A program made the translations under genes and the position numbers. DNA of 63,995 nt, counting the filler, from Sanchytrium tribonematis (lineage: Eukaryota), in assembly GCA_018985235.1 (NCBI GenBank). It is 8 parts of 8 records of this genome, joined end to end, with 100 filler letters (N's around TTAATTAATTAA, not from the genome) between each part and the next. Parts side by side here need not be neighbours in the genome. Positions count along the whole stretch, not along the records: positions 37,576 to 42,910 come from JADGIG010000619.1; 7 more parts are not named here. One strand, 5' to 3'. The first letter of the stretch is position 1. Every line of letters begins with the position of its first letter. Under the pieces are notes generated by a model. The model was not told where the DNA came from. It ran no database searches and worked only from the letters and a program-made list of their open reading frames with translations. Shown piece after piece: positions 14,301 through 46,861 of the stretch.

Positions 14301-14584
14301 TCCAATAAATTGTTTAATTCTTGTTGATTCAGAACTCTTTTGTATCCACGGCAATTCCATTGCATGATTCTTAATTTGTTAGTGAATGTGCATGTGTAAT
14401 TGGACTCTCCATCTAAAGATTCAGGGATATTATAATTTATTTCTGATGGTGGATCGGAAATTTGTGTAAATAAAGTTGAAGAAAGTGTATTTCGAGCCAC
14501 TTTGTTTTGTCTAGTAGTGTTAATTGCTTGTCTTTTCAATGGAACCATGTCATTTGGTTCAGACTTCAAAATCTTTGTGGGCAT
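11360..14584 (-). CDS. LINE APE endonuclease-reverse transcriptase, uninterrupted 1074-aa frame
   Basis: All APE and RT motifs present, including YADD, plus the C-terminal CCHC. Confidence 0.93.
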   Translation of the reverse strand: MPTKILKSEPNDMVPLKRQAINTTRQNKVARNTLSSTLFTQISDPPSEINYNIPESLDGESNYTCTFTNKLRIMQWNCRGYKRVLNQQELNNLLELEPHILLLQESKNYKYLPHINNYTQWDLPNSNLHHKQHLFIHNSVTSVNKIKFFDNCYIFKINRQNIAFTYIPFHYIRTRNIEYIKSILNEAISHNAFICGDLNFNILEIDSKSDLFSKQLKCYLLNKSYVFHNVTTSTMVNTNKILDHFWSHSSLQHAVKSLLTIQRPDKYTSDHWPSIIELETDKMMLSLEKINWKKLKIPKFRKQYQSMLQNLIKKYNDNLLDSINVNEIDNFLTSCVLTADKQTLGIIPNFPECRILTSNLDSINKYIKRKQQTYSRVKSRRRRIILLKEIKQCRKKYNSEMENQVYQNHLEVLEEINKDSTNAYHKLCKIKNSNFNPNRIFCNEEEMIAYQKNHFDAPNHSWNKKHTSEEQINRAYQESKSLFSCEKIRKEARRLNTRKSAGGILPNTSIKFLPSNGIKVLKHLFQQAYTHGDLPESWCKSSICEIYKNKGSHSDPKFYRPISLLPTVRKIYEKILYYFKLKYILIPSFRQHGFCQSRSTLTQLHFVLNTIKQFKRNGDVYLASLDLSSAFDHINWDDIEQNVVNLFTPIDCNALRSLIVNQSLYLKRDSLKQTIEMKQGVPQGGTLSPLLFSFIIDRILSELDYDDSKIAICLYADDIFLCANNPNYLQLILNNITSKLKDHNFKANPNKYQICASSEYSFVVDNQELESLKFIKYLGIHINCDGIDYDAELVHKNKQIASVQKKIHTEEANKLFHGQPLFVKGVIESILSYGLPLWDVKYLERLESIRKGAVNGVFRHSRLIHEYLCKFLNSNELYNKNRISLETQLRNCIYQLQSDPRTPLNYIEILKFNTSFCETVDGYTPLSANTLEELQLTVEERLQDMWDENRANRGSKLKTTSNLLILLKKNRYNYTYSHSTLKLGVLFLMGRMPFRGNDEYRAICEYCEQPFDSTAHFEEVCLVENTDLATSNIYNTFKNGSETEIFDLLKKLKKSTFGEKIIQETGADQDHSSA

Positions 14585-16741
14585 CGAATTATTTTCAAAG
14601 TCATTTTTACGTTTATGGTTTTGTATTTGACTGCCACCAAGTTAATTTTTCTGAAGACGATTTGGTACGAGTTTGAATTTTCGAAAATTGAAATTTGGAA
14701 ATTGATCTCTGATTATTTGAAAAAGATGCATTTTGTTATATGGACATGCAAACTCATAGTGTTGTAAGTCATTATGGTTATTTAGAATGGTTAAATGGGC
14801 TGTGGTCCCGTCATGGAGCTCATGATATCTTGAGATGGACAGATTTAAAAATTGGCTGTTTATTGAATGACTAATAGAATAGATATTGAGTTTAAAAGGA
14901 AATGATGCAGATCTTAGTAATGATTGAGTATTAGGTAAAAGACATTGGCGGAGTGTGTGGCAGAGTATTGGCAAATCTGGCGTATTTGGATATTTCAATG
15001 AAATAGAGTTCGAATACATTTGAGTCATAATTTGGGTATCATGGTAAGCAGCATTAGCGCATGAATGATGATTGTTATTATGGATCTCAGTAAAATGAAA
15101 ATGACTTATATATTTGAGAAGAGAACAGATGCGAGTGTTCTCATTATCATAGAATGAATAAGAAATTATAGGTATATTATCTTTCGGCATCATTTCAAGG
15201 TGTTTATCATCATGCTGAGATTTCAAATTTGTAAATTGATGCAGTACTACTTGAATAAATAGAATTGAAAAGAAATCAAATTTATTTAATCTTCCAAGGT
15301 CATGCCAGTCTAAATGAGTACCAAATACCAAGATAGGCTTAATAGTTGTAATATGCAACATTTTGGCAATCTTTGCAGTAAAATCTTCATCCAATTCAAT
15401 GAATTCTCCGTCATCTGTGATTCCTTGATAAATAATATCCAAATCTCTAAATTCTGGTCCGTAGATTTTAACGTATTCCTCTTTAAGGGCACTGACTAGA
15501 TTTTCATCTTTGGGGAACTGAAATGATAGTGTCAAATCCTGTCCTGATTCGTCAGAAATGGTTAAATCAAATGATCTGGTCTCAGTTGAGTGATGATTGG
15601 ACTTCAATTGGCTAAATACTTTAGTATATCTAGATTTGTTAGATTCAAGGTCATGGGTGGCATTTTGGATACCAATTTGCTCAATATTGGCCATTAAACG
15701 TGTTAACGACTTGATTGCTGCCATTTTGATGATGGAATTGGTTCCCAAATTCTCACTCATTCCAAATGATGGGATCTGATCACTCTTTAATACCTACTTT
15801 GGGACCACGGATTTGAAGTAGTAATCTAATTGTGTTGCATTGCAACGATTAAATCCTTGTTCAGATACATATGCATTGGAATTAACCAATCTACTAGGAC
15901 TAGCAATGAGAGCAATAAATACGCATTTATATCGCACATCTAAATCTTCAGCAAGATGAATGAACTCACAAACTTGATGGTTGAGGCAATAATTTCTCAC
16001 TGTTTTGGCGGATTTCAATGCAGAGATGGGTCCAAAGAATACATTCAAATGGTAAGCATGAGTTAATTTGTAATTGGAATGGATAATTGATTGGATAGCT
16101 GGCATGTCTAAATCATAAATATCTGTGTTGGGATTTGGTGAATTCACGTGTTTGACGGAGAAAGTAGAGAAGTTTGTGGCTTGCAAATCGAGTGTAATAT
16201 GAAAGTAATTTGGGTCACTGACCAAATAACATGGTAAATTGGCGTCATTTTCTTCAATTTGCTCACAATATGATTTGATAAGCTCTAGATACTCCTTGTA
16301 AATCCCTGATTGTAGATGCTTCATAGGTGCAGTAATGTGGTTTCTTAAAGCCACAGTATCCATTTTTTCGGCTCGTAGACAGAACTTAGGGATTGTTAAT
16401 TCACGATTAAATTGTAAAGGTTTCCTATCCATGAAATAGTCGTGGGAACACCAGAATTCAATATGTTGTGCATATTTCTGTGAACCAATCGCTGCTGTGG
16501 TTCCTTGGGCTACTGCAGGGCAGGAAAGAGTGTGATTGGGGGTCAAATGTTTTGTTAATTTTATAATGGTCAATAAATGTCCTCTTGAAGTGTCTTTAAT
16601 AATGTTATCAAGATCTGCTATCTTTTGTGCATCTCTGGAGCCAGATTGGAATGCTTTTAAGCTTCCTTTTAACTGAGATGACATATCAGAAAGACCTTGC
16701 AAGAGTTTATAAAGTGCGAGCGCAATTGACATGTGAGCAAA

Positions 16742-16862
16742 TTGAATATGTTTATTGGTGTGAAGGCGCCATTGGCAAACTTGAATATGTTTATTGGTGT
16801 GAAGGCGCCATTGGCAAACTTGAATATGTTTATTGGTGTGAAGGCGCCATTGGCAAACTTGA
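16742..16862. repeat. Three perfect 39-bp tandem repeats at the 5' end of LINE copy 1
   Basis: Unit ttgaatatgtttattggtgtgaaggcgccattggcaaac x3. Confidence 0.97.
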
Positions 16863-18136
16863 TCTTTTGAAATGCAATCTGAGTGTTTTTTTAGTAAAGT
16901 GGAATGTTCAAGTTTCTCATTTTCACAAGTTAGTATGTAATAGATTTTAGTGGATGGAAGCCAATCTGTGTAGAAAATAAAGTGTTTTATTGAGAAAGAT
17001 GCATGAAATTCTGTTGCTTTATGAGCAGAAATAGCACATTCATTTGATAACAAGCGAATTATGCGAGTTGTGGTCCAGAAAGTCAAATTGGCAAAAAAAA
17101 TTAAAATTTTAAAAATTTTGCAGATCAAACTGGCAACTCCTCGTTTCATCAAATGACATCTTAAAAAGTCAATTGTATTTTTTTCAAATAGATTTTGAAG
17201 GGTTGAAGTATCAATTTTGTCCCATTGAACTGCAGCAATTTCATTTATAACTAGTTAATTGGGAATTGGAGATACAAGAGCCAATTATTGCCAGATTTTT
17301 AAATATTTGAGGGTATAATCCACACAGACTCCATTTGATTGAGTAATTAAGCGTCTAGCCACTTTAAAATTTCAACTAATTATTCAATTTACTCTCTTCA
17401 GTAGCCAAAAGTTATACAATACCAAGGAGATGAAAAAAATGAAAAAGCAACAAAGATCAGAGAATCTTATGAAAAACTGCTCTCTTGATACGCGATTAGA
17501 ATTAATAAATAATTATTTTAATAGTAGTAATTCCTGTTTGAAAATTATATTTGGAGTGATATTTTTATATTTTACAAATATAAATCTATTTTTTTAAAAT
17601 ATAAATAATTTCTAAAATCAGTTTAAATGAGTATAAGAATCTGGCAAGTTGATGGAAATGGCTTTGAAGAAAAACGCTTCCCTTTTATAAAAATTATATT
17701 TTTTCCATAACTTTATTTATTGTCCGGGTAAACTCACAGCTGATGGCCAATCACGTTACCCTTTTGAAACAATAAAATTTTATCTGTGAAGGTTCTATTT
17801 GGATACAAAAAACCCGACTCCCAGGACTATGTTGCACGTAATCAAAAAGAGACGCTCTTAGACCATCTAAAATAACGAAAAACTACGAAACTGGGCAATC
17901 TTTTTATTATGGTGTAATGTGAACAATGGGTGGGTTTTACAATCAAAAAAACTAGGATCAAAATGAGCTGAACTCGACTCTGTTGGTTTTACCTTTGATT
18001 TTTCAATTGCATCCCTGCACATATCGGGATCGAGAAAAAATTGAAATTTGATTCTGTTACAACATTCCTAAAAATAGATAAATAAACTCCTTTTCAGGTG
18101 TTTTGTGCACATTTGTTTGGCAAAATACATTATACA

Positions 18137-18328: not shown

Positions 18329-21110
18329 TAGAAGGCAATAAAGAAACTGAACAGACCACAGATCAGAGTAGACAACACACATACTGATGGTATGTGTTCT
18401 GTGGGATTCTAGCACAATACCTTCTTCATCATATACTTCTAAAGCATATGTGTATATTGGCATCACCACTTCTCGATAAAATTGCTTATAAGCACCTTGA
18501 AGTGACTCAAACGTGCGTGTCCATTTAATCTGCCCAATTGCAAAATTGACTTTGTCAATGCGTGACTTGACATCTACTGCATAATCAATATTATCCCATT
18601 TTAAATAAACACTCAGATACTTCATATTATTTGCTTTGGGACTGATATTTCATTAGAAAGATTTAAATGCGTAATTTTTGAATCGGATGTGACGTATTGA
18701 AATTTCTGACTATTAGCAATAAATCCATGATATTTAAGCTTTAATAATATAAGATTACTCAATAATTGTGCATTTTGGTAGCTATTGCACACCAATAGCA
18801 AGTCATCGGCGTAGATGTGGATTGAAAAATTATTAGAATTTGAGATGGATAGTAAAATGCGATCCATCACGTAGGCAAACAACAGAAAGCTTAGTGAGCC
18901 ACCCTATGGAGTGCTTCTCATGAATGGAATGGCTGTTTGATTAGAATCAAAAGGGAATTAAATTGATTGTTTTGTGATAATGATTTTTAATAGATTCAAA
19001 TAGTGTGATTATATATGAGGTTTGAGTAATTCATTAAGATCCTTATGCAGAATACAATCACAGGCAGATGGGAATGTTTGAATTTCTTAAACTGAATAGA
19101 TCTGGCTGCTGCAGCTGCGCTGTTTGCAGAATCCATGTTGGCGAATGCTAGGATGTATTCTATCGAGTAGTAACATATTTGTTGGAAAATTTTATATGTG
19201 CGTGATAATAGGTTGATGGGCCTATATCTGCTAGTATCCCTTTCATTTCCGCTTTTAAACACGTCAAAAGTAACTGAGAGGAGCCAGGCCGATGGGAAAT
19301 TGCATTCAAGATAACATTGACTAAAGAAACTTAGAAATAATTCATATCCGATTTCTGGTAGATTTTTGAGAAGAATAGCCGGTATGGCATCACCAGACAC
19401 TTTGTTGCTGTTTGAATGCTTAAATGCATTGGTTATACGTTCAGTCGTGAAGACCTCTCTTGCAACGGCATTCACTAGATGACTTAATTGAAGGATTTCT
19501 TCTGGCCAATCAGAAGAATTTGGGGAGAAATGAGTCAGTTGGTACTGAATAGCTCTCTCAAGATCACAATTAAAAGAGTGATTAGGTCTCTTTGACTGTC
19601 GTAGTCTGCATAAATCGACAAAGGCGCTACTTTGGTTTTTATTAATATTCTCAAGATATTTTTTCTTTTTGCTCCTTGGATCTCTGATTTTTGATTCCTT
19701 CCTGATGCAGTCAATTTGGTGTCTAATGTTATCTCTTCGTGTAACTATGATGTTTTTCTTCTTCAGTTTGCGCTTCAATTTATTTTTACGAATATTTAGA
19801 ATTTGAATAACATTATCAAAATCATTCATTTGCGAGTTATCCAGGATATTGCTTATACCAAGTATTTTGGTTGCATGTTTAGTACAGACCTTCAATAAGT
19901 AGCTCCATTTATCATTCACAGAAATATTTTCATATGCAATCTTATTTGTCTCAAATTCATGCTTTAATTTTTCTTGTAGGGATAGGCGAAGGATGGGATC
20001 ATTCTTTAATTTACTCCATCTGATATTACGTAGAATTGCAATTGGGGAGTCAAGAGAATATGTAAATTTGATGGGGAAATGGTCAGAGCTAGTATCTTCT
20101 TCTGTTAATACCTCAACATTGCTAGTGCGATCTAGTTTGGATTGGTGGACAAGTAGAACATCATTTACATTAATACCATTTCTCATGGTGCTTATATTGG
20201 GAGAATTTCTACACGAATATGCAAAATTACTTATAAATGTCTCAAATGATCTTCCTACCCTATTTGACCCATTTTGAATCATGGACATGTGCATGTTGGC
20301 ATCACCAACAACAATACTTTTTAATTCAAATGCTACTTGGAGTTCTGAATGGACCAAAGAAAGATTCCCCATAATTCTAGGGGGAATATAAAGAAAGGAG
20401 AAGACATGTCCATCAATTTTAACTGTATGACAATGCTTTGTATTATGATTCATTTGAGTGATGTTATTAATGCCAATTTTGATGTATATGCATTGTCTGT
20501 CCACCTCGTGGAGGAATTTGAATTTAAATTGTGAATATCCATTTAATCGAATATCCTTCTTCGTATCTAATCTATATTCATTCAAATGTAAGATATCTGG
20601 TCTGTGCATACCTATTAGAGATCTCAACTCTGTTTTTAGATTTCCTTGCCTGACTCCTCTACAATTGTAGCTTATGACGCAAAAATCATGAATTTGATCT
20701 GCCACACTGTGATCAGTGAGTAGATCACCATTTCCACCTCTAAGACGTACATCAAAGTCATCATCAATCAATTTTATCCCAGAATAGATCTTTGACTCAC
20801 TTCAATCCACATTTTCGATTCTTGAGTCAATGAAGTGCTTTACATCCTTTAAATTACATTGTTTAAAGTAGTAGAATGGGTATGAGTTGTTGTTATCCAT
20901 TTTAATCCATAATAAACTCTGTTTTGGCTTATTTGATTTTAGATACAAAATTGGTTGAATCACTGTTTTGGATGGTTCTGGTCTGCAGATTCTTTTGTTG
21001 TACACTGTATTAGCAGCAGGTGTTGCCATGGGACGCTTTAGAGAAGAGGAAACCAATGAATCAGCATTTATTGAATTAACTTTGATTCGCCTCTTCTCCA
21101 AAATTAAAGT
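18329..21110 (-). mobile_element. Degenerate LINE copy 2 (Ubl-RLRGG-APE-RT) with frameshifts and stops
   Basis: VRLRGG then ISYNCRG, LHLNE, GDANM, SDHFP, YRPINLL; IYADDL and KYL in the downstream fragments. Confidence 0.88.
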
Positions 21111-21318
21111 GAACTACCGACAAGGGGAGCAGAGTACTCGACTGTGAGTTCAATAACCCGTCCTGTAGTGATTCTTGCCAAGTGGCACTTGATCTGAGGT
21201 CTGTTGATGTCACATGTCAGTGATCCGTGAATAAATTTAATTGGTCAGTGATTACACAATAGTTTCACCTGCTTCGATTATCTTTCACGTCGATCGCAAG
21301 TAGGGTGAAGCGTGAAGT

Positions 21319-22440
21319 GTGAAGCGTGAAAGTGATTCTGACGAAAATATTGACTTGTTACTGCTTTATTTATATTTTAAGGCACCCAAGAAGATCCCAA
21401 GAAAGCCACGATCATTTTACCAACCAATTCCTAGAGCATACATTTGGTATCATTTACAAGTAGCTGTTTTACATGATAGACACTATAGATTCTTTTTTCG
21501 TATGACTAAATTGCAATACGAATCCCTTTTAAATATTTGCATGCAAAGCGATCATCATTATTTACTAAATTCCCCAGTCGCATTTTCGAAAAAATTACAC
21601 ATCTATTTATACTTTGTTGGGAATAATCCATATAATACAGAGATGGTAGATCGCTTTGGCGTAGGATCACCACTCACTTATGTATTGGAAGTTGCCAATT
21701 TATTGAATGAATCACTTTATAACAATTTCGTAAAATGGCCAGATTTGACAGAAAAAGTAGCCATAAAACAACAATTTGAACAATATTGTGGTTTTAAAAA
21801 TATAATTGGATGTATAGATGGAACCCATGTGGGGATATCTGGTATTGGCAAATTCAGAAATGGATATACAACAAGAAAGAGTGTCTACGCAATTAACGTG
21901 ACATTTGTGTGTGATTATAATAAACAAATAAGATATAGTATAATTGGCTGTCCAGGTGCATATCACGACAATCGCGTATTTGAATTATGTGATTTGCACA
22001 ACAATGAATCACAATATTTTGATGGAAATGATGTCATGTTGGGAGATTCTGCATACAAGGGATCCAATAATGTGGTTGTGCCTTATACAAGTCCATCAGT
22101 AAAAGAGAATGTCAGTTTTAATTATTTACACGCCAAAGCACGTGTAAAAGTTGAAAATACGATTGGATTAAACAAGGGAAAATTCAAGGTGATGGGAACA
22201 CAAATTAGAATCAAATCAATTAGAAAAATAGTGATTATCATCAAATCAATTACAGTGGTGCATAATTTTATCATTCAATACAGTTTGAGAAACAATACAG
22301 AAGATGTTTGGGAGGAGGATGAATTACATGAAAATGATTTGCAAGTTGTAGAGCAATATCCAGAGCATGCAGCCATAAATTATAGATTTAATGTATCAGC
22401 ATTTGAAAGAAAAGAGATTATGAAGAGGACAAATGAATAA
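21319..22440 (+). mobile_element. PIF/Harbinger DDE transposase (HARBI1-like)
   Basis: IIGCIDGTHV, GAYHDNRVF, LGDSAY, FNYLHAKARVKVENTIG motifs; convergent with a Myb/SANT partner gene. Start codon unclear. Confidence 0.92.
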
Positions 22441-33493: not shown

Positions 33494-36400
33494 ATGGTCT
33501 ATGTCAAACTTTTAAAGGCTGAATTGCCATCTAATAATGAATTTACTCAACCATACATTGAAATTACATTTTGCAACGACACCCAAAAATCAGCCACATC
33601 TTCTGGAGAAAATCCTGAATGGGATAATGCAGAATTCATTTGGAGTAATAAGTCAGATACGCTCCTTATACGTCACAAAGATGTTAAATTGGGTAAAGAT
33701 ACTGTATTGACAAATTGTAATATTTTCGTCCCAAAACTCCCTAAAGTGGCTCATGGATGGTTTACACTGTTTAACGCGAATCAAGAAAAAGCTGGAGCTA
33801 TCCTGCTAATAATTGGTATCAAGGAAAGGCCAGATATGAACAAATTGCTAGCTGTTAGAGATTATTCATGCCAATTTGACTTGAAGCATACTGAAAATAA
33901 CCTATTTCAAGATAGCATCAAAAATATACTATTAAAAATCACTAATATATCAGATAATCACCATCAATCATTTTCCATTCTATCTCGTGAACCAGTCGAA
34001 AAGTTAGGATCCCTGGTTTACAAATTTATTAACTTATTCGATATTAATCTAAATCATGAACTTTTATTAAATACATATGGAAGAGTAACACCTGGAAGAG
34101 TCCCATTCATCATTGAAAATGGAATAATTACAAACCCAGAATTTGGACCAATTGATGAATCTGTGATGAATGAAGAATTAGGTGTATATCACTTTGCAAT
34201 GAGGCACACAAAAGACAAAGAAATTGGGTTTACTATAAAATGTGGAGAATTGGTGAAATTACCAGATTCAAGATTATTTAGCAGCAGTGAAGATGTAACC
34301 ATATTTACCGTTAGAATCACTAAAACGAAGAATTGGGTACGTGTATTGGCATCAAATAGAATCGATGGATACTCCATGAGTGACAAATACTATTTAAAAC
34401 GAGCAGAAATTTTAATTGTAGAATCTGGTAAATTTCATATATCCTCTAGTTCACACATAAAGAGGGTGGATTTCCAATTAACGTTACCAGATGGTAATAT
34501 GAACATGAAATTTGGTATTAATTACGGCATGGAGCAATCCGAATTGAAGTCTTTCAATTTAAGTGATAAGATCCCTTATGTAAAATACACATTTGATTTA
34601 TTGAGTCAAGATGAATACGATTCAGTTCATATGCCATCCGTAGTTGGAGTAGCAGATCGATTTAATGGATTTATCTCTAGTGCCTCTAGTTTCTTTTCAA
34701 TCCAAGGTAGTTTCCAGAATGCATCAGGTGGATCTGCAACATCTACTGGTGCTATTGGACCACCTGTTAATGGTGCAGCAATCATCGAATATCAGAAATC
34801 TCCAATAGATGATCTCTATCTTCTTTTTGACGGTGAAACCCCCTTGAGTTTAAATGGAATTGAAAAATGGCATATTTCTCAATTAAATGAGACACAAGTG
34901 ATTATTCACTACCATAATGAGATACTTGCATTGGAAAATGGCAAATTGGAAGTTCAAAAGTGGCAAGAATCATCAAGCCAACAAATTTGGAATATTTTAC
35001 GTGATTCTGATCATATCAGCAATGAAATACACTCATCTGATGGGGCAATTGACACTCTTTCAAAATATATTAAGAACAATTCAGACGAATCGCTTAAATC
35101 GATTAAATCAGCAACAGAAACATCTATTTCAATACTGAAAGTGGATGATCAAATTAAATGGTTGGAATCACTCATGAATGCTTTAGGTATCTCCACAGAA
35201 GAGATAGAATTGAATGAAATGAGTCCAATTCCGATTCAGTTTGGGAAACTAGGAAATGATCCAAGTAAGAAAACGCTACTTATTTATGGCCATTATAATG
35301 AATTAAATTCTATACTTAAATGGTTGGTAGCCATTAATGCACATATTAAATTTCAAGTGGAATTACCCATCAATTTATTATTCTGCTTCGATTGTTCGAG
35401 AAAAGACGAATCAATGAGTGAATCAATCATTACAGAGAGTCAAAAATACTTTGAATCTGCTGATTATGCGTATATTTGTGATGATATATGCTCAGATAAT
35501 GAATTAGAGTGCATTATTCCAATTATGAGTGAAAAAAAGCAATCAAAAAGCACTCGAATCCAATCTCTACTACGTAAAGTTGAAATCATCAGGTCACAAA
35601 TCTCCAATCCATCCACTCTTGCCATTCTTCAATATTTTGGCATTGGATTTCCACAAGATCATTTTGCAGCAATTCAAAGATTTGAAGCTTCTTTTGATTC
35701 TAATCAACTGGGACATGTATTCATTGGATATTCTTATCTTCATGGCCATGGTATCCAACAGAATGTTGATAAAGCATTGTTTCATCTCCAATTGGCATCC
35801 GATCAGAATATTCCTTCAGCTCATTATTATTTGGGTGATGTCCATCAATACATCAAGAATGACCTCCAAATGGCACTTGAATACTATCAGAAAGCAGCAG
35901 CATTGAATTATAGTGCAGCATTCTTTCAAATATCCAAATTAAAAGAGAATCATAAAAATCTAGAATATCTCCAATTGGGTGCTGATTATGGCAGTTCTAA
36001 ATGCAATTATAAATTAGCATATTTATTAGAATATGTCATGAATTGTTTCTTGAATATGGAAGCTGCTACTGAATATTACAAGGTATCTGCTTATTTGGGC
36101 TATTTTCCTGCTCAAATCAAACTAAATACTCTAAATATCACAATATCAACTGAAGTGGACGCACCTAATGTTCCAATTATTTACAAGTTTGATCAAACTG
36201 TTTCTGAGACGGTTCAAGTATCTGATACTATATCAGAATTAGAATCCGTAATTAAAAATATGAAACATATCAAAGTAGGGGGTGCCCCAATTCCAAGTTC
36301 TAAAAAATTACATGTTCAATTGATTGATGAAACAGATATTATGGATGAAATGGAAATCAGCAAGTCCGATTTACGCGGCGCTGGTGTCTATTTCAGGTTT

Positions 36401-37475
36401 TACTTGAGAAAGTGGCAAGGGAGAAATGTCGCTATTAAAAAATTTGAAAATATTCCCTTTAAAAATTCAAGGACAACCAGGTCTTTTTCTAATACTGCGT
36501 CGTTAAGGAGGCTTATTTTGAGTGAGATTATATCATTTCAAAATCTATCAAATGATCCAAATATATGTCAATTTTTTGGAGTCACATCCATTGATGGACA
36601 TTTAGGTGTCATTATGGAATATTTAGACAATTGCTCACTTCATACATGGCTTCATATAATGCCCAATGCTGATTTAAATCCAAAATCACTTACAAATCCA
36701 CAAATTAATAAAATTCAACTTGGGATTGCCAGTGGTTTGAAATACATGCACGACAATGAAATAGCCCATAATGATCTCAAACCAGCCAATATCATGCTAG
36801 ATCATCAATTTAATCCTAAATTAATTGATTTTGGAATGGTTGAAATTATTAATTCATCTTACAAATCAGTCCACAGCTCTAAAGAATTAAAATTAGGCAC
36901 AGCTAATTGGAGAGCCCCAGAATATTGGCAATTCAATCAACAATTTCATCAACATCAGAATCAATTTCCATTTGCAGGAGATGTTTTCTCCTTTGCAGTT
37001 ATTTTGGGAGAAATGGCAACTCGTCAAGTGCCATGGTCGGGTAACAGTAAAAGTAACATTGAAAAATCAATCCAATCAGGGAAGCGTCCATACACCAAAG
37101 ATCAAGTGAATCCCAAATTATTTGAAATTATGGAAATGGCTTGGCAACAACATCCAAAAGATCGACCCAATATATATTTAATCACTCAATTATTACATAA
37201 TTATATCCATCCATATGATATTTCATCTCCATTACCAATTGGGATTGAATTATTTAGATTATTCAAGAGATCCATTGAATTGGCAAATGTGGAATTATTT
37301 GAGAGATGTCTGCATGAATTAATCAAATACAATGACATAGATGATATAGAGCGGTATTTTACCCAAATTAAAGATCTAAGACCTAAATGGATTGAATTAA
37401 AGGCACAAATTACAAATCCATTCACAATTGCATTGCTGAATTATTTCAATATTGGCTATTTTCATTTCACTGACG
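33494..37475 (+). CDS. Mosaic protein: C2 domain, degenerate M20 dipeptidase (Dug1/CNDP2-like) fragment, SEL1 repeats, TKL-type kinase; 3' truncated
   Basis: C2-like N-terminus (PYIEI...ENPEW); LGNDPSKKTLLIYGHY and ELPINLLFCF; SEL1 (GYSYLHGHGIQQN, ALEYYQKAA); kinase VAIK, HNDLKPANIML, DFG, WRAPE. Confidence 0.85.
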
Positions 37476-37575: not shown

Positions 37576-37912
37576 TCTTTTTTGAAGCTTTGTCATATTC
37601 GTTAGAGCCTGTCAAGTCTTGCCAAAATTGAACCCATGGTTGGTCTTCATCCGCTTGGTCTAAGCCATCAATACCGATGAATTTGAAAGTCGTATGATAA
37701 TTCTTTAAAATCAAGTCCTGAATTGCATGGTGAATTGCCAAAGTTTTTCCACTGCCAGGCATTCCGATAGCGAAAAGTAACAAAGAATCTCTTTTTTCAG
37801 AGATGCTAGCGCATCTATTAGAGATTGCACTTATTTCAAGTTTTCTTCCTTTTATAGCGTCGAGCTTAGTTTGATCAATACTTGTCGTTGGAATAATAAT
37901 TGGACGAACCAT
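37576..37912 (-). CDS. Divergent Cdc6/Orc1-like AAA+ ATPase N-terminal part, truncated by contig end
   Basis: Walker A GMPGSGKT followed by FKFIGIDG...PWVQFWQDLTG, resembling the Orc1/Cdc6 segment. Confidence 0.6.
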
Positions 37913-38075
37913 TATAGAATAAATTCTTCTGGCTATTAATACTTCTTTTGTAATTAAATTACGTTTAATTTTGCCACATTCAATAGATTAATCCATTCAG
38001 ACATAGAGAGAATCAATACATAGCAAATTGGATAATTTTAGAGCAAAAATGCAAAACAAAGAAATTTATCATAAT

Positions 38076-38657
38076 TTATTTAGTAGCCGTGAATGTAGAA
38101 TCAATCTTTTCACGTGAGATCAGCCACTTCTTGTACAGAAACAATCTTTGGGCAATAATTCCACCGAAGATTATTGTCAACCCAATTGATGCGATTCCTT
38201 GAGCGACCAAAGTAGATTTTTCTGCATTTTTCGCTGCGCTCAATTGATTGCCTTTAAAGCCAATAGAATCCATTTGATCAAATCGTTCATTGATGATTGC
38301 GCCTGCCGTGGACAGGATCACAATATAGAGAATAATGATGGCTATTATAGCTACCACAAAAGACCACATCGCGGAGTTTGCTATTTTCACTTTTTGAGAT
38401 TTGATGCTAGCAAAACCGATGAGAGATACTAGAACATATATGACTCCTTGAACAATGGAAATTGCTCCGTATGTGCTTTGACCATAATCAATCCCCGCTG
38501 GACCAGTAACAAAATTGAGGACCCCGTATGTGCTTTGACCATAATCAATCAACGCTGATCCAGTAACAAAACTGAGGACCCCGCCTAGTAAAAAAAACGC
38601 ATACATGATGCACAAACCTAATCTGATGCCGCCACAACAACACTTTGGTTCCTTCAT
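38076..38657 (-). CDS. Four-TM membrane protein with N-terminal CCC motif (LAPTM/tetraspanin-like topology); internal 57-bp duplication
   Basis: Hydrophobic helices; KCCCGG; tandem paralog of 38996-39523. Confidence 0.8.
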   Translation of the reverse strand: MKEPKCCCGGIRLGLCIMYAFFLLGGVLSFVTGSALIDYGQSTYGVLNFVTGPAGIDYGQSTYGAISIVQGVIYVLVSLIGFASIKSQKVKIANSAMWSFVVAIIAIIILYIVILSTAGAIINERFDQMDSIGFKGNQLSAAKNAEKSTLVAQGIASIGLTIIFGGIIAQRLFLYKKWLISREKIDSTFTATK

Positions 38658-38995
38658 GAGTGAGATATTCAACTTGGGAATGTTCACTTTAAATATTTGA
38701 CATCTTGCACTTGCAACTACCTTGCAAATTTCTTGCAGTTTCCTTGCTCCAATTGTAGGACATGTGAATAAATGAACTGCACCGTTTAATTAACTTCTTC
38801 AAAGTTGCGTGTAATACCGAATTGTTGAATATTATGAGTATGTGGTCAAATACAATTCTTTTCTCGTATCTTATAAAGTTTTTAAAATTTGCTTAATAAT
38901 TCAAGCTAATGAAATACTTTTGAAAGGAACGCCTAAAATAAAATACATAGCTAACCGAATGATTTAAGAATGCAAAATAAGGAATTCATCTTAAT

Positions 38996-39523
38996 TTATT
39001 GTGTACCCACTGACGAAGAATCAATCTTTTCACGTGAGACAAGCCACTTCTTGTACAGATACATTCGTTGGACAACAATTCCACCAAAGATTAATGTCAA
39101 TCCAATTACTACAATTCCTCCAGCAACCAAAGCAGTGGTTGTAGTAGCTTTGAGTGCTTTTATGGTGGCATCTGTTGAACTTGGATTACTTTTTTCTTGA
39201 TCAATTGTCTGATTGATAGTTGTGCCCATCATAGATAAACTTATAATAGAGAGGATAATCGCCACTGTAATCAGTGCTACGAAGGTCCACATTGCAGTGT
39301 TTGCAGTTTTGACTTTCTGAGTTTTAATGCTTAAGAACCCAACCATTGAAGCTACAATAAAAACAATTCCCTGAATGATATATATTGCACCTTCTGATTT
39401 AAATCCAAGATCGACGTACGTAGATCCTTTCGCAATGTCAACCGATCCACCAATTAAAAAAAGAGCGTACATAATGCATAATCCTAATCGGACACCACAA
39501 CAACAACATTTTGGTTCTCTCAT
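38996..39523 (-). CDS. Four-TM membrane protein, tandem paralog of 38076-38657
   Basis: Shared REPKCCC and YKKWL.SREKIDS termini; stop overlaps AATAAA. Confidence 0.8.
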   Translation of the reverse strand: MREPKCCCCGVRLGLCIMYALFLIGGSVDIAKGSTYVDLGFKSEGAIYIIQGIVFIVASMVGFLSIKTQKVKTANTAMWTFVALITVAIILSIISLSMMGTTINQTIDQEKSNPSSTDATIKALKATTTTALVAGGIVVIGLTLIFGGIVVQRMYLYKKWLVSREKIDSSSVGTQ

Positions 39524-39952
39524 GAGTAAGATAATTATTTGAGAATACGTCCTTTAAATGTATGACTTCAGACTTGCACCTTTATTGCAACTCCCTTGCA
39601 AATTTCTTGCAGTTTCCTTGCTCCAATAGTAGGACATTGTGATTAAATGAACTGCACCGTTGATTTACGTTGTCGGGTCTATGAGCTAAAAATCAATTTG
39701 TTCAAATGGGATTCTTTTCTCTGATATTATTTGGGACACGTTCTTTAGACTAGGAGAAAATCTTGGTTTTCTGTAAATTCAATTTGAAATTATTACCAGA
39801 CTTTAGACTATGAAAACTAGACTGGAGTGATATATGCTCCATAAGTCTATTTATTTCGACAATCCAAGTGACCTGTTTTAAAAATTACTGTTAAGTTTTC
39901 TCCAAAAAAGGATGTATCAATATTATTTGATCCTCTTTGGTCATAAATTTGG

Positions 39953-40288
39953 TTGCATACCAAATCTATCTATTCTGTTTGTGATGTTGTAGAAACGTAT
40001 GAGTGTCCGCATCTTGGAGACACGAATCAATGGGAGTTATTAGGCGTCTATGTCAGAGCAAATCTGGCATACGATAAAGTCGTAGAACTGAACATCAAGA
40101 AAGCAAAACGATTTCGGGAGAATGTCAGAAAAACGTTCGAAGCGTGTGTAAACAAATCTTACGCAAATGTAGCTGAAAGACATGAGCGCATTTATGATGG
40201 CTATCTGGATCTGCTTTATGGTAACAGTTATGTCCGAGAAACTGTTTATGCTGTAAGATTCGTAAAATTGTTTCAAGAAAACCAATAA
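39953..40288 (+). CDS. Hypothetical small ORF
   Basis: 111 open codons with non-ATG start; no recognised motif. Confidence 0.3.
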   Translation: MHTKSIYSVCDVVETYECPHLGDTNQWELLGVYVRANLAYDKVVELNIKKAKRFRENVRKTFEACVNKSYANVAERHERIYDGYLDLLYGNSYVRETVYAVRFVKLFQENQ

Positions 40289-41739
40289 TGTTGGAAAATA
40301 AATTAGTTTGATATCGTAATAATCGTATCTTCAAGAAAATATAAATTATTAAATTTTTTGTCATTCTTCTTCCAAACTTCCTGGCAAATTTTTGAATCTC
40401 CTTTGAAACAAATTTGCATTTACAAGCAAGTGTTAGGCATATCAAGTTGTCTAGATCTCTTGAAAATGTACTACAAATATAATTTATTGAAGCTTAATTG
40501 CTGAATCACCCAGTTATAAAACAATTGAATTTGTCATACTCGAGATTAAATTATTGATTTGATGATCGATTCGGCTATCAATCTCCATAATGTTGCATCG
40601 GCGTGGGTTCGTTTCGATTTGAGTACTATATTGGTTCAATGTACTCTTTGTTATAGCAAAATCGAGTCTAAGCACTATACAGAATCATAGGATCATTGAG
40701 AATTGCAATACCCATAGCAGAATTGCCAAAATTTGTGTGGATTTCAATTGGGCGACAGGAGAAAAGTTCGTATTTTGATTCTCCTTGTTACTTCAGTATT
40801 GAATAGGTACTGTTATTCCAGAGCATTGTTGTCTATAGCACCCCGTGCTTGTTAGGGTTCCAAATTGTTGGTCCGCATCCCATCGTACCTATTGACAAAA
40901 CTTCAAAATTGTTCTTTGTAGAGTCTACATGTGAATCTTCCGGTTTTTCAAATACATCGAGAGTGTTCTCTTTCTCATCTCTCACTTTTGAATTTCATTG
41001 CTGATCGGTACGTTTTTACTCCCTTTTAGTCGGTTCAAGATCCATAATTTATGAACTTTTCTGTAGCAGTAAAAGAATCTGCGCAAACCGCATCAGTTTA
41101 GTACGTTAATCTATATCAAGAACAACACATCGTTCATATTTTACGGTACAATCCGAAGATTGTACGATATAGTTCATTTCGATCTGTCAAAATTTTTGGG
41201 TAAAACAAATTGTAGATCTGAAATTAAGGAAAGTTGACAAATTCCATCAAATTTTAATCCGCTTGATATAAATATAATTCTATAGAGCCATTTAGGAGTC
41301 AAAATGCTTAGAGGAAATTTAAGAAATTAGTGTACTTAAACTTTATTTTGAAACCACGATTATTCGTGTCTCTCAAAACAGAAGAAGAATGTTTTTAACC
41401 AAGCCTTGTAATATATTTGCTATTTAATAGGGTTTAAAAATTAAATTTTGATTGTCCCAAAATAGCATACTTTGCTGCTTCTGCAATGCCATACGGCTGC
41501 ATCTCGTTGCATTTTTTTGATAAATCAAAATATTGTGGCACTTGTAGTCAAGTTATAATGTGTTATACCGCATAATTTAACATAATTTGATTGCAAGTGT
41601 GGATACCCCAGTTTTTTGACTCTACCAAATTGCCTCCATTGCATCCAATAATTCATATAAAATTTAGCCGTATGGTAATTAAGTAATTTTACTGATCAGT
41701 TTCAAAATAAAAATAAATTTACTCTAAACATCGGGATTA

Positions 41740-42910
41740 ATGCGACCTTATGAATTCCAAATTGAAATAGAAAGCGCGAGAAATATGTACCTCAAGGGAA
41801 GTTGGGATGGATGGAATGCAGCCACAGAATTGCATAGTAGTGGTAAAAAATGGACTTGCAAAAAAACTTTATGGCCAGGTGTCTTCGAGTTCAAGTTTTA
41901 TCAAAAGCTCGACGATAAAGTAATCTGGCACACCAGCTTCTTGCATCCACATCACAATTATGAGAATTTTAATAATTATATTGAAATTAAAAGATTTGAT
42001 TCAATTCTCATGGAGCGCTATTATTCATCTGATTATGACAAAAACTTTGTAAAATCTCTAAAGATTTTGAATTGGGAATTATTTTCCCGTAAATATGGTC
42101 TAACCAAAGACAAACCTAAGACTTTTGACGAAGGTTTAGCACTTATCCCAAAAATATCAGACAAAAGCGCATTATCGATGTTTTCATCCTTGTTGGAGGA
42201 TCATTTTAAATTTTATCACGATCATGTTTATTATTCGGGTTATATTAAGTATTACTTGCCTGACTGTTTCCCAAGTTGCTTTGAACTCAAATGTCAAAAT
42301 GGAAACTCCATTCCCGATTTTATAGGAGATGATACTGTACCTTATAAGACTTATCCACTCATTCGAGGAAGTTTTCCGATTACTAGTACACTTCATATGC
42401 ATGTTGTTAAAGTGAAGCATTTTTTAAATCTACTAGATGTTTTAAATTTGACTCAGGGCTATATCTCAAAAAAGGTTGACAACTGTAGATCAACCAACAT
42501 CACAGTTTTTCCAAGACTTCCTCATTTATACAATAGTGATTGTTCCTGGGACTGTACCCTGAGCGACTTTCACGATAAATCGCAACTTTCTTACTTTAAA
42601 GCCTGCGAAACTATAAAAAACGGAATAATTGAGTGGCGAACGCAAAATTTAAAAGTAGATACGTATATCGCATTCTTTGATTTAGCTAATTTTTTCGACA
42701 GAATTTATTCACAAACAATCTCTTGGTTACTGGCCAGTCAGAAGTTGCATGTTTATTTTAATCAAACGCAAATGAATTGTGTATGGTTCAATATGATTGA
42801 TTCTGCTGTTCAAAAAGCGAAAGGCTTTCGAGCGTATGGGATTTCAACTGGTTCTCTTTTAATATCTGACATTGCAGAATGTTATCTGCGTCTTTTGCAA
42901 ACCAAATTAC
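41740..42910 (+). CDS. CBM48 (AMPK-beta glycogen-binding-like) domain fused to an Abi/UG-class reverse transcriptase; 3' truncated before YxDD
   Basis: N-terminal YLKGSWDGW...LWPGVFEFKF...W...NNYIEI; RT segments GYIKYYLPDCFP, FFDLANFFDRIYSQTISW and IDSAVQ....RAYGISTGSLLISDIAECYL. Confidence 0.78.
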
Positions 42911-43010
42911 NNNNNNNNNNNNNNNNNNNNNNNNNNNNNNNNNNNNNNNNNNNNTTAATTAATTAANNNNNNNNNNNNNNNNNNNNNNNNNNNNNNNNNN
43001 NNNNNNNNNN

Positions 43011-44608: not shown

Positions 44609-46861
44609 ATGGATTTGAGTCGTCATACTGGATTTATCGTGGTTGGGAATAAGACTGATCCAACTTGTAAAAATTTGAAAATTAGAATCGAAAACATCAT
44701 TAAAACAAAAAGCCAACACCATTATCAAATTGATCGCACGATTTATGCAGAATGGACAGAAATATGCAATACTTATAAAGATAGGGAAAATAGTGATCTG
44801 GATGTAAACAATCCTCAAAGAGTTGTGTTTATTCATGGCATGTTGATTAGATGCGCATCTGAAAACATTATCAAAAATACTAATCTTGATAATTGGATTC
44901 AAAGCTGCTATGTGAAAGAGTCTTTGATTATTATTATAGGGGATACTGATCAGATTGAAAAAGAAATCTTGTTTGACATCTTATTTGCTTGTAATGGGGA
45001 TGAGAAGGATACCGTAATGCTGCTTGAGAATGCTGTTCAATCCGATACTAATCTTTATGCCACCATCATCAATAACAAAGCCATGTTTCTGTTAAATCAA
45101 CCCACCATTGATGAATTTGAAGATTTATATCCAAAAGCATTGAAATCTTGCAATTCTGGAAAAATCAAAACCATATATTGTGGACATGGAAGTCAACATG
45201 GCATTCATTTAGCAGATGGCTCGTATAGTGGTGATAGATTAAATTGGATTCTAAAAGGTGTCACCTTAAAGCACAGCCCTGGTAGTGGAAAGGTCAGTTT
45301 TTATATCAATTCATGCTTTGGCATTGATTTTGCTATTCAAGCTGATGATAAATATGATTGTAATCACTTTGGAACGTCTTTGAAAGGCGGATTAAGCATG
45401 GCGGATAATTTTTCTAATTTGAGAAGAGGCACAGCACTTAGATTAAGAAATGCAAAAGAAATCACTGAAGAATTGAAAAATACCAATGTAAAGATGTGTG
45501 AAAAGCTCCGCAATGCTGATAGAAGCATAATTAGTTCAATTGAATTTTCCAACATTATAATGAACGTTGTTCCATTATCAGTTGGACCCTTGCACGCTGT
45601 AGGGGAAATAAATGAAGCATTGAGAAGGGATCTCAAATTGGATAAATTAGACAAGCCATTCAATCAGTTAATTACCCGTGGAAAAGAAGCCAGTCAATCC
45701 AAGAAAGAGACGGACAAGTTTCAAAAAATGAAAGAGAAATTCGAAAAAACTCACAATCATGACACTCCCAATCTTTACAAAAATCCCACTTTACATGTTT
45801 ATCAAGCTAAAAAGGGTGATTCATGTTTATTTCAATGGGATGGCATTAATATTCTGATTGATGGTGGATATTCTAAATCTCAAATTTGTTTTTGGCAAGA
45901 TGTACAGCATTTAGATATATTAGATGCTGTGATTGTGACGCATGGAGATGATGATCACATTAATGGGATTCTGCAATTATTTGATTATGCAATTTTGATA
46001 AAGAACAAGAAACTACCTGATAATTCTCAAATGCCAATGATTAAAAGCTTTATCGCACACGCATTAGATGAGAATTACAATCGAGGATTCAAACATAGCA
46101 AACAACTAGTAGATAAAGCAAAGGACCTCGAAATTGGAATTGTTAAACCAGCAAAATATTTAAAAATTGATAATTTATGGATTCATTTTATTCTACCAAC
46201 TGATGTGAATCTTAAAAATTACCAAGCCGAGATGAGATTAAGTGATATCAATAGATGGGGAATTGTCATGTGGTTTGAGTGTAAACAAGATGGCAAGAAA
46301 CCCATTAATTTGTTATTTACTGGGGATGCAGATGGTGAGGAAATTATTACCGGATTAAATGAATATTTAGACAATTATTACATGCATACTAAAACTAATT
46401 ATAATGGCGACACACATGTGTATCAGCCTCCTCCATCTTTTCAAGGCGATGCAAATCCAAGTAAAGTCACTATTCCAAAGTTTGATTATGTGGATATGCC
46501 ACATCATGGATCTCAAGAAAATAGTCATGTTAAATTTCTGAATGCCATTAGAACAGATAAATTAATGATTTCAAGTGATGGTGCTACGTATGGAAATCCA
46601 AGAAATGCAGTTGTGGATTTAATTAAGGAAAAGGAAAAAGGGGTCAAAGAAGAAAATGATTCAACTTGGTCATATAAGAAACTATATTGCAACTATAAAC
46701 AAGTTTGTAGAAGAATGAGTGATGTGGCAGATGGTGATTATGGTAAATCCATGTGGACGGGAACAAAAGTAATTTTCAGCGATGAAATCGCCACATTTCC
46801 AGTTGGACAAGAGACAAAAGTCACAATTCCAATTCAATTTAAAAAATTGAATAAACAATGA
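44609..46861 (+). CDS. MAP1/Futsch-N-terminal-like protein: caspase-like (clan CD) domain plus ComEC-type metallo-beta-lactamase domain
   Basis: IYCGHG and INSCFG; KGDSCLF, ILIDGG, CFWQDVQHLD, VTHGDDDHINGI, LFTGDA, PHHGS. Confidence 0.75.
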   Translation: MDLSRHTGFIVVGNKTDPTCKNLKIRIENIIKTKSQHHYQIDRTIYAEWTEICNTYKDRENSDLDVNNPQRVVFIHGMLIRCASENIIKNTNLDNWIQSCYVKESLIIIIGDTDQIEKEILFDILFACNGDEKDTVMLLENAVQSDTNLYATIINNKAMFLLNQPTIDEFEDLYPKALKSCNSGKIKTIYCGHGSQHGIHLADGSYSGDRLNWILKGVTLKHSPGSGKVSFYINSCFGIDFAIQADDKYDCNHFGTSLKGGLSMADNFSNLRRGTALRLRNAKEITEELKNTNVKMCEKLRNADRSIISSIEFSNIIMNVVPLSVGPLHAVGEINEALRRDLKLDKLDKPFNQLITRGKEASQSKKETDKFQKMKEKFEKTHNHDTPNLYKNPTLHVYQAKKGDSCLFQWDGINILIDGGYSKSQICFWQDVQHLDILDAVIVTHGDDDHINGILQLFDYAILIKNKKLPDNSQMPMIKSFIAHALDENYNRGFKHSKQLVDKAKDLEIGIVKPAKYLKIDNLWIHFILPTDVNLKNYQAEMRLSDINRWGIVMWFECKQDGKKPINLLFTGDADGEEIITGLNEYLDNYYMHTKTNYNGDTHVYQPPPSFQGDANPSKVTIPKFDYVDMPHHGSQENSHVKFLNAIRTDKLMISSDGATYGNPRNAVVDLIKEKEKGVKEENDSTWSYKKLYCNYKQVCRRMSDVADGDYGKSMWTGTKVIFSDEIATFPVGQETKVTIPIQFKKLNKQ

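Follow-up and report, generated by a model that had tools for sequence, protein, structure and literature searches.

Background

Class 1 UG/Abi polymerases have so far been treated as prokaryotic, and their active sites are illustrated here by AbiK, DRT4 and DRT3b, as described in the published sections available to us. In AbiK the active site contains D163, D247 and D248, Y245 stacks on the product and the D247N mutant is dead (PMC9508834); D247A/D248A is also dead and R96A leaves only a faint signal (PMC3177184). In DRT4 all three aspartates (D149, D240 and D241) mediate metal binding, the dNTP is held by R75 with N271 and K274 and the product by Y238; R75A impairs defence and polymerase activity tracks defence (PMC12783706). 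The Mg ion of DRT3b is coordinated by the motif A Asp D182, by I183 and by D278, with which the two Asp of the YVDD motif begin (PMC13174585). The priming Tyr is found at differing places: Y44 in AbiK (PMC9508834), Y125 in DRT4 (PMC12783706) and Y666 in DRT3b (PMC13174585).

As regards eukaryotes, Mestre et al. 2022 analysed their set only after taking eukaryotic sequences out of it, and the group they give as occurring in eukaryotes, in the part of that paper accessible to us, is rvt (PMC9226505). The accessible text of the DRT10-telomerase preprint names TERT and PLE (Penelope) reverse transcriptases (RTs) as eukaryotic links, and DRT10 is the only RT link to eukaryotes mentioned in the accessible text of a 2026 review.

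Results and discussion

An in-frame CBM48-RT gene at a contig end

The window (the whole stretch of DNA that was analysed, 63,995 nucleotides of Sanchytrium tribonematis) consists of contigs chained by the linkers described in Table 1, and the RT gene lies at the end of contig 37576-42910. Its ORF comprises 390 open codons up to that end. The translated protein, hereafter P0001, carries in frame a domain recognised by Pfam AMPK1_CBM (E 5.7e-11; 42.9 bits, the cut-off being 26.8) and an RT domain recognised by PADLOC, as the first-pass annotation of this DNA had proposed; all the motifs quoted there are present in the translation in the order given, and the reading frame is indeed cut by the contig break, at 42910, before YxDD.

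In run X1, one contig of 1873 nt matches 41655-42910 throughout (0 differences) and continues 617 nt past the break, so that CBM and RT are found on one contig, with no sign of an assembly chimera at their junction; the agreement itself brings no independent support, X1 being possibly the window's own source. By eye, the first 30 letters beyond 42910 read as 10 sense codons in frame with no stop, which gives about 400 stop-free codons at 34% G+C for the ORF plus its continuation. The alignments place the expected motif C of P0001 19-22 codons past the break, and the 10 visible codons of the extension end short of it. The aligned relatives extend about 270-310 residues beyond the break point, and judged from them the predicted full length of P0001 is about 660-700 aa.

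As to read continuity across 39.7-41.7 kb, all 30 bins of the contig are covered in run X1, no listed piece spans the whole 5.3 kb, and variant contigs at about half depth (12-14 versus 24-26) with skips of 447 and 773 bp were seen at 39858-41684, upstream of the RT gene, which could be another haplotype or repeat copies. These variants begin just upstream and none differs across the P0001 ORF. A short repeat (39746-39797), also upstream of the gene, shows many loose ends in the same run. A transposon reading of the RT gene was rejected, as no flanking terminal repeats were found and the ORF is matched at >=85% by no further contig.

Table 1. Position of the fusion gene, its domains and motifs, and the neighbouring features in the window
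Feature	Position	Strand	Basis or remark
Two tandem-duplicated small membrane-protein genes, AATAAA overlapping stop	38076..39523	-	same contig as RT gene; eukaryotic context
CBM48-RT fusion gene, 5' part (P0001, 390 aa, no stop)	41740..42910	+	ORF translation
CBM48 / AMPK1_CBM, residues 12-85, with W22, W25, K52, W63, N78/N79	41773..41994	+	Pfam PF16561
N-terminal helical extension, family-specific, from Met91	42010..42219	+	alignments with P0005, P0015, P0017
Fingers and palm of class 1 UG/Abi RT (GYFP-like motif through motif B)	42220..42909	+	PADLOC; hhalign residues 159-390; phmmer
Fingers hairpin R209-K224, no Arg/Lys between (equivalent of DRT4 R75 / AbiK R96 absent)	42364..42411	+	sequence; alignments
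Motif A, catalytic Asp314 (equivalent of AbiK D163 / DRT4 D149), kept	42679..42681	+	alignment
Motif B, G367 to E380, kept	42838..42879	+	alignment
Contig-join linker N44-TTAATTAATTAA-N44	42911..43010	.	sequence after 43010 is a different contig

Affinity of the RT domain with class 1 UG/Abi polymerases

All 11 PADLOC matches of P0001 were to AbiK, AbiP2, UG14, Drt4, Drt6 or UG30 (best, AbiK, E 1.4e-8); there was no UG37 (rvt) row among them, the presence of a UG37 model in the library being unconfirmed. Residues 159-390 were aligned by hhalign to a family-plus-bacteria profile, and against a profile of 46 RTs, built from bacterial loci and database matches all outside the family described below, P0001 scored 41.5 bits, compared with 7.7 for the best of 500 shuffles and 19.2 for the LINE RT of the window. 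Searched against the PDB, the family profile retrieved Abi-P2, DRT6, AbiK, DRT4 and Drt3b, and no other RT at E<=1.

P0001 being too truncated for useful folding, its best full-length match, P0005, was modelled instead (pLDDT 75, pTM 0.70); 11 of the 21 rows in the underlying alignment are bacterial, so that the model is pulled towards bacterial folds, and an earlier model from 8 sequences was unusable (pLDDT 46.5). The comparison with AbiK and Abi-P2 suggested by the first-pass annotation was thus made with a relative: Foldseek's top matches were Abi-P2 (1e-12), UG15/DRT4, DRT6, AbiK and AbiA, with E between 1e-12 and 2e-8, and group II intron RTs appeared only from E 9e-7. With VIA, the RT plus helical domain gave Z 19.7 for both DRT6 and Abi-P2 (358 and 352 residues aligned, rmsd 3.9 and 4.6), 18.1 for DRT4, 18.0 for AbiK and 12.6 for a group II intron RT. 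The C-terminal helical domain belongs to the P0005 model, of which residues 82-509 align to DRT6 1-495; P0001 ends before that region. In the ESM Atlas, all leads for the P0001 RT were below 0.9, and P0005 matched bacterial RVT_1 clusters at 0.94-0.95.

The LINE RT of the window (11363-14641; RVT_1 E 4.8e-33) shows the differing motifs, which bears out the distinction drawn earlier between the Abi/UG and LINE patterns. It is part of a LINE with endonuclease and RT (1093 aa) at 11363-17254 (minus strand), preceded by two unannotated ORFs; another ORF with an endonuclease and a gene for a DDE_Tnp_4 transposase also lie in this stretch and in 18999-22437. We rejected P0001 itself as a LINE RT, as Pfam matched neither RVT_1 nor an endonuclease in it and its grouping with the LINE was rejected by the AU test (p-AU 0.029); the whole family and the LINE as one clade were not rejected (p 0.12). 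The RT phylogeny that had been called for places P0001 in a clade among class 1 RTs, in trees that contain no rvt, retron, group II intron or TERT sequences. Taken together, sequence, profile and model support a class 1 UG/Abi RT rather than a LINE, retron or group II intron RT.

Filing P0001 within AbiK, Abi-P2, DRT4 or DRT6 was also rejected: the fingers Arg is absent, its relatives have no YxDD, and scores with the NCBIfam Drt4 model (NF041749) are far below the cut-off of 450 bits (22 with P0001, which is truncated, and 34-100 in the scan of 9 relatives). At most, P0001 would work in the manner of these four.

A family with members in sanchytrid fungi

A phmmer search with P0001 over 1.84 billion cluster representatives gave 8 matches, the nearest at 34% identity over 248 residues and 50% over 79; two profile searches added relatives, and 10 were left after removal of near-duplicates. 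P0007, P0009 and P0018 are from Amoeboradix gromovi and P0017 is from Sanchytrium tribonematis; P0023 is a EukProt protein, and P0005, P0006, P0008, P0010 and P0015 are ENA proteins, three of these five being near EukProt proteins (P0008 and P0015 at 61-64% identity; P0010 pairs with P0023 at 100). Sanchytrids are zoosporic fungi parasitic on algae, and the available text of their genome paper describes the genomes as single-cell and decontaminated (PMC8371127). Two sanchytrid relatives are 76% identical across the genera Amoeboradix and Sanchytrium. At least three paralogues exist in one sanchytrid, A. gromovi: P0007, P0009 and P0018 are about 20% identical to one another; one combines RRSDN with the motif A Asp, which the other two lack.

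In the profile search, nine family matches scored 126-195 bits, eight of them being in or close to the query profile, and the next match scored 82. P0001 and its 10 relatives form one clade inside the sampled bacterial class 1 RTs, with support of 100/98 in the tree with 10 family rows and SH-aLRT of 88 and 95 with 11 rows, motif C columns dropped. The bacterial sister group of the family has no supported placement in either tree. P0001 is sister to P0006, an RRSDN protein, at 94/83 in the 10-row tree, and in the 11-row tree both lie in an unresolved group of 6 rows. The trees omit the fragments L002 and L019, L024 (which stops before motif B) and the near-duplicates P0011, P0013 and P0016; the 11-row tree also omits L005 and L018 and adds 24 of 96 further non-family profile matches.

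The GTDB scan yielded no family member: its 9 confirmed loci (9/9) are at 23-32% identity, and motif C has DD in 7 of the 8 examined, the eighth ending early. The metagenome scan likewise yielded none, all 9 of its loci having DD. Loci of both scans are distant class 1 RTs, outside the family clade where tested. No viral relative was found in the IMG/VR scans, and the best structural match in BFVD is partial (E 2.2e-8, TM 0.28).

A conserved but non-canonical active site

The first-pass annotation had anticipated a canonical catalytic Asp pair downstream of the break. In all 10 relatives, motif C reads instead RRxD[N/T] (RRSDN in 7, RRMDT in 2, RRGDT in 1) in place of YxDD, the corresponding segment of P0001 lying beyond the contig end. 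Among the 110 proteins aligned, the 100 non-family ones have DD (97) or YVDN (3), and in a separate alignment of bacterial class 1 RTs 24 of 25 rows reach motif C, every one with DD. The fingers Arg is present in 11/11 bacterial rows and in 0/8 family rows, two of which have Lys. P0001 and all 7 RRSDN relatives keep the motif A Asp, which the remaining 3 have lost, and these 7 also have an intact N..K pair in motif D. Alignment is poor ahead of motif A, and no priming Tyr was matched.

RRSDN is identical in 7 proteins of which several pairs are only 22-38% identical, a degree of conservation that, judged from these alignments, is not random decay. Because both metal-binding Asp and motif D are kept jointly in 7 relatives and changed jointly in 3, the former are presumably active and the latter dead paralogues. 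A normal AbiK-like processive polymerase is unlikely because of RRxD[N/T] in the relatives and the absent fingers Arg; the loss of Tyr, second Asp and fingers Arg in the family argues against long processive synthesis.

The explanation that we prefer, and that we hold to be evenly poised between right and wrong, is that P0001 is the product of a eukaryotic CBM48-RT gene, likely derived from a bacterial class 1 UG/Abi anti-phage polymerase. It would transfer nucleotides without a template, slowly or non-processively, by means of a retuned two-Asp site. We infer its functional steps as follows. Motif C of P0001 would also be RRSDN, as in its sister P0006; Asp314 and the first Asp of motif C would coordinate metal, and a protein hydroxyl would receive a single nucleotide or a few, in the absence of the Tyr and the Arg by which AbiK and DRT4 hold primer and dNTP.

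The main rival has a real probability, clearly short of even: the proteins would be pseudoenzymes, the RT fold serving as a sensor of nucleotides or nucleic acids or as an oligomeric scaffold, with RRSDN retained for ligand binding and CBM48 localising the sensor. Three catalytic features are altered together in the family (Arg replaces the motif C Tyr, Asn/Thr the second Asp, and the fingers Arg is absent), the motif A Asp is also missing in 3 relatives, so that dead copies are tolerated, and P0001 carries further substitutions, departing at near-invariant sites from H to Q at 325 and from D to Q at 387. However, the DRT3b-type metal Asps and the motif D N..K pair are jointly kept in 7/10 and jointly altered in 3/10, which fits a mix of active and dead paralogues, and the dead mutants in the published sections available to us alter the first Asp or both, none the second Asp alone.

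Three non-family RVT_1 proteins of Drt3b size (P0035, P0066 and P0072) carry a natural YVDN, and two of them group with Drt3b in the 11-row tree; they are useful for asking whether the second Asp of motif C is dispensable.

The CBM48 module is a likely lineage-specific addition

The residues W25, K52, W63 and N78/N79 of the module are, we assume, those of the AMPK-beta sugar-binding site. PDB sequence searches with P0001 and with the CBM alone gave nothing significant, the CBM query matching no CBM. The yeast protein Crp1p, which binds cruciform DNA, may be linked to CBM48-like domains.

The fusion was seen once, in 1 of 11 family members. No CBM was matched in any of the 10 relatives, 6 of which have a full N-terminus; that of the nearest relative, P0006, is incomplete, and a CBM may be present there. 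A word search for longer fused relatives among 832 candidates found none, which is weak evidence. Since relatives without CBM start at the position of P0001 Met91 (in the alignments of the full-length ones, 6 residues after the CBM end), the fusion is likely a lineage-specific addition and not the core of the family. Regulation by glycogen as the logic of the whole system, put forward in the first-pass annotation, is therefore not borne out. On the preferred nucleotidyltransferase explanation, CBM48 would have been placed ahead of Met91, the former start, in this one lineage, and would anchor the protein on glycogen or a different alpha-glucan.

It is very unlikely, in our judgement, that the family is real but P0001 is decaying, or that its CBM fusion is incidental, be it a recent, functionless in-frame capture or one bypassed by translation mostly from Met16 or Met91. 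The single occurrence of the CBM, the 6-residue linker and the retained Met91 fit such a view, as do H325Q and D387Q, the lack of a close relative of P0001 among the 1.84 billion representatives, and a branch longer than that of its sister P0006 in both trees (1.06 versus 0.56 with 10 rows, 0.80 versus 0.67 with 11). Against it, 400 codons are open at 34% G+C, the CBM scores above the Pfam cut-off with its tryptophans kept, and no X1 variant contig differs over the ORF, though variants exist just upstream.

Eukaryotic context and origin of the gene

Two neighbours on the RT contig have the AATAAA signal overlapping the stop codon, as noted earlier for host-style genes; the 175-aa product of the tandem-duplicated gene is present in EukProt, as are two proteins of the contig after the RT contig, and other window contigs encode casein kinase I, a copine and a LINE. 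The G+C content of the RT gene (0.343) and its GC3 (0.321) are inside the range of 13 host genes. Codon usage does not discriminate, the RT gene scoring 0.091, host genes 0.045-0.193 and six bacterial RT genes 0.04-0.225. We consider it very probable that the gene of P0001 is a class 1-derived gene residing in a eukaryote. The claim of a bacteria-derived RT in a eukaryote is supported for class 1 identity and eukaryotic context, and is not supported for a canonical catalytic Asp pair.

A source other than the host, be it a mobile element, endosymbiotic bacterium or giant virus associated with these fungi, appears highly improbable for the gene, as does an assembly chimera. The contigs are short and none listed spans the 5.3 kb, codon usage fails to separate host genes from AT-rich bacterial RTs, five relatives are known as ENA records, and the sanchytrid genomes are, in the available text of their description, single-cell and decontaminated; but one contig spans the CBM-RT junction, the neighbours are eukaryotic, no family member came from the IMG/VR, GTDB or metagenome scans, terminal repeats were not found around the gene, and identity among the three A. 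gromovi paralogues, only about 20%, is not that of transposon copies.

Other genes of the window were noted. At 37576-37987 (minus strand), on the RT contig, a truncated P-loop ORF matches NPHP3_N (E 5.7e-5) and nSTAND3 (E 6.5e-4), both below the cut-off, and may be a STAND/NLR-like NTPase. On the next contig, 44609-46861 (plus strand) encodes a 750-aa protein listed in EukProt, with a C-terminal MBL-fold hydrolase that matches models of anti-phage effectors (LmuA 1.8e-27, RT-associated MBL 3.8e-20, Avs1a 6.9e-18) and also the MBL-like domain of MAP1B; GHG and NSC motifs in the N-terminal half look by eye like a caspase/CHAT dyad, with no Pfam support. This protein may be a eukaryotic case of a protease fused to a hydrolase in the manner of bacterial defence, and is not linked to the RT because a contig join lies between them. 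The 1327-aa ORF at 33494-37475 (plus strand), cut by the contig end, has Sel1 repeats and a kinase domain, which we take to be typical of the expanded fungal Sel1-kinases.

For the preferred explanation, a two-Asp nucleotidyltransferase of class 1 origin, we propose one old transfer from bacteria to a lineage of zoosporic fungi, which duplication would have followed, giving presumably active RRSDN and dead RRMDT and RRGDT paralogues. Defence against fungal viruses or mobile elements would be a guess from ancestry, as would the immune or cell-death role suggested earlier. A bolder version, which we find unlikely, holds that zoosporic fungi domesticated a bacterial abortive-infection polymerase into a new RRSDN two-Asp class that would nucleotidylate proteins or make short oligonucleotide signals, with dead paralogues as regulators of antiviral defence, and, in the copy described here, a CBM48 tether to glycogen.

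Comparison with known systems

No sanchytrid or chytrid entry was found in the supplements of the DRT10-telomerase preprint (one file being incomplete), and RTs are unmentioned in the main text and 9 supplements searched of the sanchytrid genome paper (PMC8371127). Our literature search, made at abstract level with most subscription papers outside its scope, returned no report of eukaryotic or fungal homologues of class 1 UG/Abi/DRT enzymes. The family appears to be a eukaryotic branch of the class 1 UG/Abi RTs that has so far gone undescribed, and its site is conserved though non-canonical. A eukaryotic AbiK/DRT4-like clade would, if true, mean that eukaryotes have acquired a further module of anti-phage origin; conserved RRSDN offers a natural test of the need for second Asp, Tyr and fingers Arg in template-free synthesis, and since complete sanchytrid relatives exist, the family can be assayed now.

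With the AMPK beta-subunit (PF16561, CBM48), P0001 shares residues 12-85, which pass the Pfam cut-off; its CBM precedes an RT domain and not the C-terminal domain of AMPK-beta, and sugar binding is predicted at most. With Abi-P2 (PDB 7r08) and AbiK (7r06/7r07; Figiel et al. 2022, PMC9508834), which include its best PADLOC and PDB sequence matches, it shares class 1 motifs A and B, and the P0005 model shares their RT plus helical domain (Z 19.7 and 18.0). By contrast, the relatives have RRSDN and not RYRDD or RYVDD, the family has no fingers Arg, is eukaryotic and bears an extra N-terminal helical extension, to which the P0001 copy adds CBM48. DRT4 (UG15) and DRT6 (UG12) (PMC12783706) resemble P0001 in their single-gene layout with no RNA partner seen, they fold like the P0005 model (Z 18.1 and 19.7), and the motif D Asn/Lys are kept in 7 relatives; unlike in DRT4, the equivalents of R75, Y238 and D241 are changed in the family, and the Drt4 score is 22 versus 450 bits. 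The closest biological precedent is rvt (UG37), described in the accessible part of its account as non-mobile, protein-primed genes of the UG/Abi group, patchy in eukaryotes (PMC9226505). According to the same description (PMC9226505) rvt has an N-terminal coiled coil; the model matches of the present family are all to class 1 AbiK/DRT4/DRT6.
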